From: Escherichia phage JS98 | Strand: one strand, 5' to 3' | Sequence record: NC_010105.1 | DNA: 64,000 nucleotides | Shown here: one piece after another, positions 827 through 5,384 of the stretch | Layout of the letters: the number at the start of each line of letters is the position of its first letter | Position numbering within the stretch: position 1 is the first letter of the stretch | Notes under the pieces: generated by a model | Database searches by the model: none | Seen by the model: the letters and a program-made list of their open reading frames with translations, nothing else | What the model was told of the DNA's origin: nothing | Program-made: the position numbers and the translations under genes

Positions 827-1054
827 TTATTTTCCTAACGAAATACGAGTAGGTTTTTTGCCAAAATATTCTTCATAAGAACCATCTAAACGACCTGCTT
901 TAGACCGACAATACGAATCGTACTTTTTGTAATAAGTCATCTCAGTATTATAACGCGGGTGTCTATCGGCCATAATAATACTTAACGGCCAACCTTTGGC
1001 ATAATCACGAAGACCGTTTATTTTACGAATGTATCTTTTCTTTAATTTTAGCAT
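827..1054 (-). CDS. hypothetical basic protein (75 aa)
   Basis: ORF track; ATG overlaps the terminal Cys codon/stop of the upstream paralog (tcATGCtaa), suggesting translational coupling. Confidence 0.45.
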   Translation of the reverse strand: MLKLKKRYIRKINGLRDYAKGWPLSIIMADRHPRYNTEMTYYKKYDSYCRSKAGRLDGSYEEYFGKKPTRISLGK

Positions 1055-1272
1055 GAGCTCGGGTACCAGATTTTACCATCGGGACGAGCAACGAAGGTGC
1101 GACCAGCTTCTTCGCCGTAACAAGAGCTATTCAGCCAATCTTCAAGACGAACTTCACCATCGTAATCGTCTAACTCAACACCAAAACTTTGAGCAGAAGC
1201 CATATCTTTTACTTTCTTATACAGGGCAGCCAGTTCAAGAGCAGCTTTTTCTAATTCATCAATATCAGTCAT
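1048..1272 (-). CDS. small acidic protein, C-terminal W-x-S-S-Cys family, paralog 5 (74 aa)
   Basis: ATG start; ends ...GKIWYPSSC-stop; stop-TAA-GGA junction forms SD of next gene. Confidence 0.7.
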   Translation of the reverse strand: MTDIDELEKAALELAALYKKVKDMASAQSFGVELDDYDGEVRLEDWLNSSCYGEEAGRTFVARPDGKIWYPSSC

Positions 1273-1282
1273 TTTTTATTCC

Positions 1283-1492
1283 TTAGCAAGACATAGAGGA
1301 GCTAAACCAGAAACCTTCACCTTCTGGGATACCGTAGTCATCACGGACCCATTCGTAATCATCATATTCCGGACTAGAAGCCGGAATATATTCTTCGCCA
1401 CCAGCGTGGAAGTGCTGACCTGTTTCGTCAGCCACGGACTGGCCTTTACGTACTAATTCACGGATTTGTTTTTCGATTTCATCAATAGTCAT
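1283..1492 (-). CDS. small acidic protein, C-terminal W-x-S-S-S-x-x-Cys family, paralog 4 (69 aa)
   Basis: ATG start; ends ...GFWFSSSMSC-stop; TAAGGA junction. Confidence 0.7.
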   Translation of the reverse strand: MTIDEIEKQIRELVRKGQSVADETGQHFHAGGEEYIPASSPEYDDYEWVRDDYGIPEGEGFWFSSSMSC

Positions 1493-1501
1493 TTTATTAC
1501 C

Positions 1502-1699
1502 TTAGCATTCGTAAGAGGATGATACCCAAGAGGTACCACTAATAGTAATACAACCGTTATAAAGCGTGATATGTCGTTCTAAGTCACGAACACCATCGAT
1601 ATAGATATCAGCTTCTTCGCGTTCTTCTTTACAAATCTGGATAACGTTTTCAATAGCTGCGGCGGCAGTACGGATTGCACAATCTAATTCACGAGACAT
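1502..1699 (-). CDS. small acidic protein, C-terminal W-x-S-S-S-x-x-Cys family, paralog 3 (65 aa)
   Basis: ATG start; ends ...TSWVSSSYEC-stop; TAAGGA junction. Confidence 0.7.
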   Translation of the reverse strand: MSRELDCAIRTAAAAIENVIQICKEEREEADIYIDGVRDLERHITLYNGCITISGTSWVSSSYEC

Positions 1700-1708
1700 A
1701 ATATTTCC

Positions 1709-1990
1709 TTAACATTCAGAAGAAGAGGACACCCAACCACCATTTTCCAGGTCAGTTGTATAGTCATGAGTATTAACAATAGCCCATTCAGGATGACCAT
1801 CTTCTTCCCAATGGGCAAGGTCAGCTTTCAAGGCACCAGGAGAATAATAGTCACCGCCCATACCGCGAGCAGGGTATATATTAAAATGAGTCTCATATTT
1901 GTCTGCAATTTCCTCGGCACGACGAATAGCTTCATGAATTTCTTTTACTGCGGCCAGAAGCTCTGGGTTGTTATGATTATCATTCATCAT
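1709..1990 (-). CDS. small acidic protein, C-terminal W-x-S-S-S-x-x-Cys family, paralog 2 (93 aa)
   Basis: ATG start; ends ...GGWVSSSSEC-stop; TAAGGA junction. Confidence 0.7.
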   Translation of the reverse strand: MMNDNHNNPELLAAVKEIHEAIRRAEEIADKYETHFNIYPARGMGGDYYSPGALKADLAHWEEDGHPEWAIVNTHDYTTDLENGGWVSSSSEC

Positions 1991-1999
1991 AGCTTTTCC

Positions 2000-2290
2000 T
2001 TAGCACATTGCTGAAGAGGAGACCCAGGCACCAACTGTAACGACACCGTTTTCAACTTCACCGCCATTGTTTTCAATTTCATCTTTAAACCACTGGGAGC
2101 ATTCATAACCAACAGGGTAGTATGTACGTCCTGAGCCATAATCACCTGTTCCGAATTGAATACCATACTTATCGGCAATAGCTTCACATTTGTGTTCGAT
2201 GATATCCACTTTATTCAGAAGAGCATAGATAGCCTTTTCTGCAGATTTCTCGTCGTTGTATTCAGGGATTTCAATTTCAATTTTATTCAT
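2000..2290 (-). CDS. small acidic protein, C-terminal W-x-S-S-S-x-x-Cys family, paralog 1 (96 aa)
   Basis: ATG start; ends ...GAWVSSSAMC-stop. Confidence 0.7.
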   Translation of the reverse strand: MNKIEIEIPEYNDEKSAEKAIYALLNKVDIIEHKCEAIADKYGIQFGTGDYGSGRTYYPVGYECSQWFKDEIENNGGEVENGVVTVGAWVSSSAMC

Positions 2291-2640
2291 GATTTACATT
2301 CCTTAATAAAGGTTTCAAGGTCATTACGGTTGGTTTGTTTTACATACTCATTATAATTAGCCATCTCTAAAGCATATCTCTTACGGATGGGAGCATTCAA
2401 AGCATTTGTATGGCAAATATCATACACGAGAGGGATAAAATAAGCCACGACGGCCGGAGCGATTATCATATAGAAACCCATCTCAATAGGCATGACTCCT
2501 TCGATTGCAGCCATAACTGTGGTCATTACCAGACCAACCAGACCGCCGAGCATACCTGTGACAATTCCCGTGAATAAGGAAATAGCAATATCATATTCAG
2601 CCAATTGATAAACATGCGATGAAAGACTAGGCCGTTCCAT
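2287..2640 (-). CDS. small integral membrane protein (about 117 aa, 3 predicted TM helices)
   Basis: ORF track start 2676 is TTG; ATG at 2640 with AGAGG SD; hydrophobic stretches ISLFTGIVTGMLGGLVGLVM, MGFYMIIAPAVVAYFIPLVY. Confidence 0.55.
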   Translation of the reverse strand: MERPSLSSHVYQLAEYDIAISLFTGIVTGMLGGLVGLVMTTVMAAIEGVMPIEMGFYMIIAPAVVAYFIPLVYDICHTNALNAPIRKRYALEMANYNEYVKQTNRNDLETFIKECKS

Positions 2641-3169
2641 TTTGAACCTCTTTAGCGTATTCACGGCATTCAGCAATAAAACGATTAAGCTTCCGTTGTT
2701 GTTTACGACTTTCTAATGTGTACTCAGCAGTTAAGATACCAAGCTCGGCTTTATCATAATTTTTAATATCGGTGTAAGATGGCCGACGGTCGACCATTCC
2801 AAATACATCACCATTTTCTAAAGCCACATAGCATACTAAATGGTAATCATCGTCTGCCATATTAAGAAGCACACAATCATTGCTCTCATTTAAAGAATAT
2901 ACTGAATAACGTAGTCCAGCGAATTCCACTCGTTGAATAGCCAGATTTACGTCAATAATTTCCAAAGCATCTTCAAAAGAAAGGTCTTCAGCTAAAGCAA
3001 AAATAAAAGGTAATTTGGTAGTATCGCCACGGCTAGATGTTCTGCTTAAGAAATCGTTTGAATAGCCTAGGTCTTGGCGAATTCTATAAAGAACTGAATT
3101 GGTTTCATGGGAAAGACCACTATTTTTAAACCAATCAATATTTGATATAAGGTTATCATATAAACTCAT
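2627..3169 (-). CDS. hypothetical protein (180 aa)
   Basis: ORF track; ATG with strong GGAGGAGAGGAG SD. Confidence 0.6.
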   Translation of the reverse strand: MSLYDNLISNIDWFKNSGLSHETNSVLYRIRQDLGYSNDFLSRTSSRGDTTKLPFIFALAEDLSFEDALEIIDVNLAIQRVEFAGLRYSVYSLNESNDCVLLNMADDDYHLVCYVALENGDVFGMVDRRPSYTDIKNYDKAELGILTAEYTLESRKQQRKLNRFIAECREYAKEVQNGTA

Positions 3170-3854: not shown

Positions 3855-3884
3855 ATTATACCCTGTCCTCTGAGGGTTGTAAAC
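3855..3884 (-). promoter_or_regulatory. sigma70-type early promoter GTTTAC-N18-TATAAT
   Basis: Minus-strand GTTTAC (3884-3879), 18-nt spacer, TATAAT (3860-3855). Confidence 0.5.
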
Positions 3885-4730: not shown

Positions 4731-5348
4731 TTATTTACGGGTCTTTTCGAACTGTGCTGCGTCACCTGCAAGGCGGCGGGCTTGACGAAGTTTGTTATCA
4801 ATTTCTTCGTGCATAGGCTGGGTATACTTAAGGCCTTCAACCGTCAGGTAAAGACGATAGAGGTCCGGGGTATCTAGGTTGTTAATGTGCTGCCCATTAC
4901 GAAGGGCGTTGAATTCTCGAACGAGTTGTTTAGTTTCGGATTCGATTTCAGAAACCAAAGAAGCCAGCTGGTTATATTTTTTAACAATAGTGCTGGTGTC
5001 GAACTTGATTTTAGGTTTAGGAGCTTCTTTTACAGGCTCTGCTTTAGGTGTAGGTTTCGGCGCTGCAACTTTGGTCTGAGCCGCGGGTTTAGAAACAGGA
5101 GCTTTAGCTGGTTTAGCAGGCTTAGTAGAGCCACCGGCTACGATATCTTTAAAAGCTTTGGAAGCTTTGTAATATTCTTTCTGGCTACTAGTATCAAAAC
5201 CATACATATCATAAACGTTTTTAAAGAACTCGGTAGTGGTTTTAGTCCCGGAAATTTTATCATAAGCAGCTTGCCACATATCTTTAGTCATGCGCACGCC
5301 GGCTTCATTCAGAACGCTTTCGTTCAAAAATTCATTGTAAGTTTTCAT
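4731..5348 (-). CDS. internal head protein (IPIII-like) with capsid-targeting sequence
   Basis: N-terminus MKTYNEFLNE matches T4 IP capsid-targeting sequence MKTYQEFIAE; Pro/Ala/Lys-rich basic segment; late promoter TATAAATA upstream; hairpin terminator downstream. Confidence 0.65.
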   Translation of the reverse strand: MKTYNEFLNESVLNEAGVRMTKDMWQAAYDKISGTKTTTEFFKNVYDMYGFDTSSQKEYYKASKAFKDIVAGGSTKPAKPAKAPVSKPAAQTKVAAPKPTPKAEPVKEAPKPKIKFDTSTIVKKYNQLASLVSEIESETKQLVREFNALRNGQHINNLDTPDLYRLYLTVEGLKYTQPMHEEIDNKLRQARRLAGDAAQFEKTRK

Positions 5349-5376: not shown

Positions 5377-5384
5377 TATTTATA
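5377..5384 (-). promoter_or_regulatory. late promoter TATAAATA (IPIII-like gene)
   Basis: Exact motif on minus strand immediately downstream of terminator hairpin. Confidence 0.55.

Follow-up and report, generated by a model that had tools for sequence, protein, structure and literature searches.

In a 64,000-nucleotide stretch of the genome of Escherichia phage JS98 (NC_010105.1; called the window below), five consecutive, tightly packed genes on the minus strand, running from position 2290 down to 1048, code for small, acidic proteins that have one kind of tail in common, with a tryptophan and a serine shortly before a cysteine as the last residue. We show here that genes with this tail are tightly linked to the gene of one highly conserved enzyme-like protein (900-960 nucleotides, approximately 300 residues), which in the close relative JS10 begins about 25 nucleotides to the left of window position 1 on the same strand as the array; a tblastn search found no copy of it inside the window. 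Based on this linkage and on the residue pattern of the enzyme, we suggest that the enzyme recognises the common tail and covalently modifies it, with the array as the variable part of a phage module of two components; we put this forward tentatively, as having slightly less than an even chance of being right. The initial annotation of the window had raised the idea that the C-terminal cysteine is modified or recognised; this idea gains support from the tight linkage to a conserved enzyme-like gene, while the modification itself is something we infer.

The linkage was assessed in 80 viral loci that were retrieved with an alignment of 30 enzyme homologues and chosen solely because they encode the enzyme (38-94% identity; environmental contigs and jumbo contigs of 350 kb are included). 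In 75 of these 80 loci, one to five open reading frames (ORFs) with the tail lie on the same strand and no more than 4 kb upstream of the enzyme gene; among the more distant loci taken as a subset, tail ORFs are found upstream on the same strand in 47 of 51, and counted by ORF, 210 of 222 occupy this position. When the loci were clustered all against all, the enzyme and the tail family came out as the only real gene families common to most of them; one further cluster reached a similar breadth, but it is made up of ORFs on the opposite strand that overlap the enzyme gene, and was taken as spurious. The enzyme gene follows members of the small-protein family on the same strand in JS10, JS09, PG7, phiAS4 and CC2, and the contexts of the pairing include the Tevenvirinae e-region, the nrdD region of Aeromonas phage phiAS4, the vicinity of rnlA in CC2, Phapecoctavirus, the interval between helicase and primase in Acinetobacter phage KARL-1, and a site that follows the gene for ribonucleotide reductase (RNR) in Pseudomonas phage phiPsa397. 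Gene-by-gene inspection confirmed the pairing in Phapecoctavirus tuntematon, phiPsa397, KARL-1 and Stenotrophomonas phage Mendera, the last being an exception in order, with the tail gene downstream of the enzyme gene. In the reciprocal direction, a sample taken from the weakest hits of the first array protein had the enzyme within 2 kb in three of three cases, and genus counts are consistent with the genomes that carry tail genes being a subset of those that carry the enzyme.

Across all relatives the invariant core of the tail is W-x-x-S, one or three further residues, and the terminal cysteine, although its presence in every member follows in part from how the search pattern was defined. 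The formula W-x-S-S-S-x-x-C proposed at first was thus correct in describing a common tail that ends in cysteine, and too narrow in its exact form. In a MAFFT alignment of the five paralogs only Met1, the tryptophan, two serines and the terminal cysteine are invariant. No ORF of the window other than the five of the array ends in W..S(x or xxx)C, and in the 80 related loci 222 ORFs with this ending occur among the 8174 that have 35 residues or more, against approximately 0.3 expected by our own estimate from the counts. A serine at position -3 is present in 91 of 99 unique long tails, a preference which the search pattern does not force. The tail serines are written with different codons in different paralogs (TCC, TCT, TCA or AGC), which indicates that selection acts on the protein, not the DNA. 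Paralog 5 has the motif twice, once internally (DWLNSSCYGE) and once at its end, both in the form W-x-x-S-x-C.

The five array genes (paralogs 1 to 5, assigned to types A to E; Table 1) are real and under purifying selection. They agree exactly with the ORF list in number, strand, size and ends, as first annotated; each starts with ATG, and the proteins begin MNKIEIE, MMNDNHN, MSRELDC, MTIDEIE and MTDIDEL, respectively. Pairwise comparison with Dhakavirus relatives gives ratios of nonsynonymous to synonymous substitution rates (dN/dS) of 0.04-0.38 over all five, namely 0.06-0.20, 0.19-0.38, 0.04-0.11, 0.15 and 0.07-0.17 for paralogs 1 to 5. The description of the genes as acidic, paralogous and translationally packed holds up; the isoelectric points are 4.20-4.59, and the junctions span only 9-10 nucleotides. 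At each of the four junctions the stop codon TAA is part of the Shine-Dalgarno sequence of the next gene (TAAGGA three times, TAAGGT once). This much of the initial annotation, which gave TGC-TAA-GGA for each gene, is right; the exact triplets are not, since the junctions read TGC-TAA-GGA twice, TGT-TAA-GGA once and TGC-TAA-GGT once, and paralog 5 ends TGC-TAA-AAT, with the ATG of the following gene overlapping its last codons. The composition of the array varies within Dhakavirus, where one relative (L010) lacks paralog 3. Several Dhakavirus relatives of the region (L011-L013) carry variants of paralog 4 with 73-75 residues and NSS or TSS instead of SSS in the tail, and in the JS10 RefSeq entry NC_012741 paralog 4 was left unannotated, with an intact 69-residue ORF present there (L001, 8874-9104).

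The array proteins form a family found only in phages. Paralogs 1, 2, 4 and 5 belong to PHROG 899 and paralog 3 to PHROG 4882, both of unknown function; Pfam gave no domain match for any of them, and paralog 3 was recovered by the hidden Markov model of the family (E=3.8e-9). By tblastn, relatives of paralog 1 are present in 373 phage records, from phages of Escherichia, Aeromonas, Enterobacter, Klebsiella, Serratia, Citrobacter and Erwinia. The consensus of 155 unique members consists of a helix followed by A-D-E...F.....Y-G-x-G-x-x-Y-Y-P...G-x-W-x-S-S-x-x-C; the loop reads GDYGSGRTYYP in paralog 1 and FNIYPARGMGGDYYSPG in paralog 2, and the YGxG loop is absent from paralog 3. Type A is the most widely conserved, with orthologues in Mosigvirus, Karamvirus, Aeromonas phages and Phapecoctavirus. 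Type B has orthologues in JS09, Klebsiella phage EI and Citrobacter phage NM4.3; type E, with both copies of the motif, in PG7, phiAS4, CC2, tuntematon, EI, NM4.3 and Vettismorki; and types B, C and D in Mosigvirus, Marfavirus and Moonvirus, while types A and E co-occur in Karamvirus, Winklervirus, Aeromonas phages and Phapecoctavirus. Because every type has orthologues in other phage genera, the paralogs must be ancient, and the earlier picture of a recent, diversified duplication has to be abandoned.

For paralog 1, AlphaFold predicts from an alignment of 18 sequences a structure with a mean predicted local distance difference test (pLDDT) of 90.1 and a predicted template modelling score of 0.76; it consists of a long helix at residues 14-42 and a small sheet, with the tryptophan of the tail in the last strand. 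Model confidence falls from about 95 to about 69 over the final six residues, with a short helix predicted at 92-95. The drop at the end, together with the tryptophan in the last strand, fits an exposed tail on a folded body. Paralog 5 is predicted to have a helix at residues 2-27 at low confidence, in a model that is unreliable (pLDDT 61; only close homologues in the alignment); the two predictions are in line with the helical N-terminus noted before. The model of paralog 1 has no fold relative in the PDB, known DNA mimics included, and a BFVD fold search with it returned only uncharacterised members of its own family.

The product of the partner gene carries the Pfam domains DUF7277 and DUF7275 and belongs to PHROG 2141. 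The JS10 protein EpJS10_0120, whose counterpart is annotated as dhabil_184 in phage dhabil, matches DUF7277 with E=2e-26 (93 bits) and DUF7275 with E=3e-78 (262 bits; cut-off 27), and both domains score above the Pfam gathering threshold in 30 of 30 homologues. The enzyme is present in 732 phage records and 2223 protein clusters, including phages of the RB69, JS98, Aeromonas, Acinetobacter, Phapecoctavirus, Otagovirus and jumbo types. In the JS10 protein, which begins MMLVIGSRAL, the pattern hG[GS]...DxD...E of Pol-beta-type nucleotidyltransferases is present; G5, S6, D24, D26 and E68 are invariant in the 30 homologues, as are many polar residues. Down to 27% identity, in 10 sequences, the enzymes keep GS, DxD, K125, H128, K139, H194-D195, H198, E240-E241 and E248-R249, while the third carboxylate is not alignable in the short distant forms. 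Different members also give Pfam matches below threshold to Polbeta (0.098), DUF4269 (0.082), DUF6036 (0.015) and DUF2204 (0.15), and one GenBank record labels the protein a putative nucleotidyltransferase. From this residue pattern we infer a nucleotidyltransferase fold for the enzyme, and we speculate that the H...HD...H/EE pattern in DUF7275 is a second, hydrolase-like site. The enzyme residue Cys271 (KVCTSITSGW) is present in six of six enzymes with Cys-tail partners and in one of four that have only another small-protein family beside them; this correlation was set aside, as the sample is tiny and confounded by phylogeny.

This other small-protein family is found with distant homologues of the enzyme, from phages of Gordonia, Streptomyces and Limnohabitans and from KVP40-like Vibrio phages, none of which has Cys-tail neighbours. 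These distant enzyme genes are flanked by one to four copies of the second family, whose members end ...GWYxSYxG...EVxPxEKTITVY (Table 1); Mendera has one gene of each family. The second family was considered as a distant relative of the Cys-tail proteins and rejected as such, as hhalign shows no relation between the two. The ancestral theme seems to be an enzyme gene together with several small, paralogous proteins in an array, and the Cys-tail family seems to be the version of this theme in large phages of Gram-negative hosts.

We suggest that the module consists of variable small proteins and, a few small genes downstream, a single conserved enzyme. Each small protein would be a cytoplasmic, acidic alpha/beta body whose last strand holds the tryptophan and whose exposed tail presents the serine and the terminal cysteine; the enzyme would bind the shared W-x-x-S-x1/3-C-COOH tail. 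Enzymes of the Pol-beta fold, such as GlnD, GlnE, MntA and CitX, typically place a nucleotidyl or phosphodiester-linked group on a hydroxyl. Given the GS...DxD...E signature, the enzyme would most likely attach a nucleotidyl group, or another group linked by a phosphodiester, to the serine hydroxyl, with the cysteine thiol or carboxylate serving as a recognition element or as a second reactive group. With a spacing of S-x-C or S-x-x-x-C, the serine and cysteine side chains would point to one side of a strand or helix turn, and the two may cooperate in recognition, in binding a metal or in a subsequent reaction such as ring closure. All of this chemistry is much less certain than the modification of the tail itself. 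In this way one enzyme might mature or regulate a set of small effectors or carriers of ancient origin and differing function, produced along with the early genes, perhaps for host take-over or counter-defence. The more far-reaching proposal, that many lytic phage lineages carry an unrecognised system of protein tagging or maturation, which produces a serine-linked nucleotide or prosthetic group or a serine-to-cysteine thioether ring that closes once the serine has been activated, is a possibility that we would lean against.

Several observations weigh against a modified tail. In a Karamvirus contig of the CC31 type (L030, 4612-5560), seven tRNA genes (Ile, Lys, Glu, Asn, Asp, Met, Gln) stand in the place of the array, and no Cys-tail ORF lies within 6 kb; in one environmental clade (L069) the sole tail ORF is 5 kb away on the opposite strand. 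Together with the actinophage loci described above, these cases mean that the enzyme is not strictly dependent on the tail proteins. The conserved internal motif copy of paralog 5 indicates that a free C-terminus is not always part of the motif. With their tails removed, 186 of 214 tail proteins still cluster by body sequence as one divergent family, for which reason we rejected a modular tag on unrelated proteins; the common tail could be plain inherited structure. As for the enzyme, no Pfam match to known nucleotidyltransferases rises above threshold, sequence searches of the PDB, run with the enzyme and with its profiles, give only noise (PsaB, an antibody chain), an hhalign comparison of its profile with kanamycin nucleotidyltransferase (KNTase), for which a sequence not taken from a database was used, was negative, and the NM4.3 record carries the remark 'No HHsearch hits' for this protein.

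In the main rival to tail modification, the small proteins are partners of the enzyme instead of substrates: as inhibitors, as regulators of the antitoxin kind or as adaptors for specificity, they would insert their tail into an enzyme whose target lies elsewhere, be it tRNA, other RNA, a nucleotide or a host protein. Gene linkage is expected equally under this explanation, the persistence of the enzyme at CC31-like and actinophage loci without Cys-tail genes points to a function of its own, and the different small-protein family beside the distant enzymes is what exchangeable adaptors would look like; the placement of genes for small acidic proteins upstream of a nucleotidyltransferase-like gene also recalls pairs of the AbiE/MenAT type. 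Against this, an enzyme accompanied by one to at least five anciently diverged paralogs, each under purifying selection, is unusual for an antitoxin or regulator and fits a set of multiple substrates better. Models of AbiEii, MenT, MNT or their partners were not matched by the 30 enzyme homologues in PADLOC or Pfam, the former giving just three weak, unrelated matches below threshold (Cas8b and PDC-M45C among them). A tie of the enzyme to tRNA genes was likewise rejected as a general rule, as proximity is seen at 26 of 91 loci, mostly through T4-like synteny and otherwise at a few other loci. We regard this rival as distinctly doubtful.

It is quite unlikely, in our view, that the small proteins act entirely on their own, in host take-over, in anti-defence or as acidic mimics, with a tail that is structural, metal-binding or used for dimerisation and an enzyme that is adjacent only through inherited synteny. 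Such a role would suit acidic proteins encoded in an accessory region with an early-gene layout, the kind of region in which T4-like phages keep many counter-defence genes; since the proteins are mostly one divergent family, the tail may be inherited, and the two motif copies of paralog 5 could pair within one chain. Yet the linkage survives in at least six genomic contexts and in phage families with no other accessory genes in common, and the predicted structure is unlike any that has been solved, including those of the known mimics. The anti-defence or DNA-mimic reading, one of those offered in the initial annotation, draws no direct support from these results. The chance that the five ORFs are an artefact, either pieces of a larger frameshifted gene or chance ORFs, is negligible: nothing was found in favour of it, and it is refuted by the separate ATG and Shine-Dalgarno sequence of each gene, by the dN/dS values, by the 373 phage records for paralog 1, by the variable copy number and by the confident model.

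The array region is 95-96% identical to the genomes of the Dhakavirus phages UP19, CLB_P2, dhabil and JS10 (T4 relatives of the JS98 group). The gene order on the minus strand is e.6, a gene for 180 residues, a homologue of T4 e.3, the five paralogs, a basic protein of 75 residues, a His-rich protein of 109 residues, a protein of 79 residues and an ORF of 55 residues. The array occupies a position in the e.3-nudE region. In the matching e-region of T4, to which the comparison was confined, e.2 and e.3 are adjacent with no array between them, in agreement with the initial statement that the family was not recognised among T4 gene products; records of the RB69 type list the tail genes and the enzyme gene as ORFs without T4 names. 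Two flanking genes had been suggested as functional partners of the array, and neither suggestion held up: the membrane protein gene at 2287-2640 is the e.3 homologue (BLASTP E=3e-10) and therefore occurs also where the array is absent, while the His-rich protein at 467-796 is specific to the clade; the conserved partner is instead the DUF7277/DUF7275 gene past the left end of the window. The 55-residue ORF sits between the 79-residue gene and the enzyme gene, and is annotated in dhabil (dhabil_185) and not in JS10.

The best sigma-70-like promoter match, upstream of e.6 (Table 1), is possibly an early promoter for a run of genes from e.6 through the 180-residue gene and the e.3-like gene into the array. 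There is no T4-type late promoter TATAAATA upstream of the array, the nearest on the minus strand being at 5377-5384, ahead of another gene, and the array is likely to be expressed early or in the middle period. The gene preceded by this late promoter (4731-5348, minus strand; 205 residues) begins MKTYNEFLNE, which resembles the T4 capsid-targeting sequence of internal head proteins; over the whole window the late motif is enriched, with 18 occurrences found against 7.7 expected. Three genes that flank the array share a different pattern near the C-terminus, F-[IL]-x-x-C-[RK]; they lie on the minus strand at 2627-3169, 2287-2640 and 467-796, and their ends read RFIAECRE, TFIKECKS and LFLEYCRS. 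The pattern occurs five times in the 32,880 residues of the window's ORFs, four of these being C-terminal, and the ending recurs in e.3 of T4 and of JS09 and in several paralogous membrane proteins from PG7 and CC31; judging from these ends, it may be a second shared C-terminal element of the region.

Table 1. Positions of the array genes, their junctions and other features. Positions refer to the window, except where a locus is named.
Feature	Position	Strand	Description
Paralog 1 (type A)	2000-2290	minus	96 residues; ends GAWVSSSAMC; PHROG 899, E=3e-23
Paralog 2 (type B)	1709-1990	minus	93 residues; ends GGWVSSSSEC; PHROG 899, E=3.4e-19
Paralog 3 (type C)	1502-1699	minus	65 residues; ends TSWVSSSYEC; PHROG 4882, E=2.4e-36
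Paralog 4 (type D)	1283-1492	minus	69 residues; ends GFWFSSSMSC; PHROG 899, E=2.2e-13
Paralog 5 (type E)	1048-1272	minus	74 residues; ends KIWYPSSC; PHROG 899, E=2.6e-9
Four junctions	1991-1999, 1700-1708, 1493-1501, 1273-1282	minus	9-10 nucleotides; read from the sequence
Best sigma-70-like promoter match	3855-3883	minus	TTTACA-17-TATAAT, 11/12; upstream of e.6; consensus match only
Stretch before the enzyme gene	1-182	minus	start of the 55-residue ORF (MYNVLIVFVTHPQGG...), ATG near 160; runs off the left end of the window
Second small-protein family	L091 4618-5818; L095 4594-7115; L092 3705-4001; L093 4725-5072; L094 4950-5195		

Profile matches assign both the small proteins and the enzyme to families that are catalogued but uncharacterised (PHROG 899, 4882 and 2141; DUF7277/DUF7275). 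Full-text literature searches returned no paper on either family or on the tail motif, and the motif, its link to the enzyme and the rule of one enzyme plus an array appear to be undescribed. With the tail family in at least 373 phages and the enzyme in 732, tail modification offers a hypothesis for a large block of phage genes that have no assigned function. If the tail is indeed modified, this would amount to a new kind of post-translational chemistry for viruses and would offer a fresh way to learn how these early proteins affect the host; the logic of one enzyme with many substrates would then operate as it does in the clusters for RiPPs (peptides made on ribosomes and modified after translation), but on folded proteins during infection. 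The system can be tested in established phages of E. coli, such as RB69 and JS98/JS10. We rate it as lying outside the known kinds; should the enzyme be an ordinary protein nucleotidyltransferase, the system would be a variant of that kind.

Among the known systems, T4 internal head proteins can be set apart at once, as none of the five paralogs has an N-terminus of the MKTYQEF... type and the late promoter is missing upstream of the array. The anti-restriction and DNA-mimic proteins Ocr and Arn are likewise small and acidic, and the array lies in a region with the layout of early genes. Another likeness is to GlnD with PII, GlnE with glutamine synthetase, and MntA with HepT, which also combine a GS...DxD signature, an enzyme that is genetically tied to its protein partners, and an exposed hydroxyl as the likely acceptor. 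There is, however, no detectable homology to these enzymes; the candidate acceptor here is a serine in a C-terminal tag and not a tyrosine in a loop, and the present system is phage-encoded, with many paralogous partners per enzyme and a reaction that is as yet only proposed.

The acyl carriers CitD and MdcC, which are modified by CitX and MdcG, are likewise acidic proteins of about 100 residues, and they receive a phosphodiester-linked group on a serine from a transferase encoded nearby; theirs is a case of one carrier per enzyme in a metabolic operon, whereas the array has no metabolic neighbours, and the likeness is one of description only. Carriers of the LysW type share with the array proteins a tiny size, an acidic character and a flexible C-terminal tail that contains tryptophan, with the last residue of LysW as the attachment point; LysW ends in EDWGE, however, and works with ATP-grasp enzymes of lysine and arginine synthesis, none of which is encoded near the array. 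RiPP clusters, such as those for prochlorosins and lanthipeptides, resemble the proposed module in that one modifying enzyme serves diverged substrates with a short conserved segment; serine and cysteine are close to each other in the tail, as they are in cores that form thioethers. Genes for LanB, LanM, LanKC, radical-SAM or YcaO proteins, proteases or transporters were not found among the neighbours of the array or at the related loci. The array proteins differ from RiPP precursors in being folded, at 65-100 residues and with no division into leader and core; here it is the tail that is conserved, and the body that varies.

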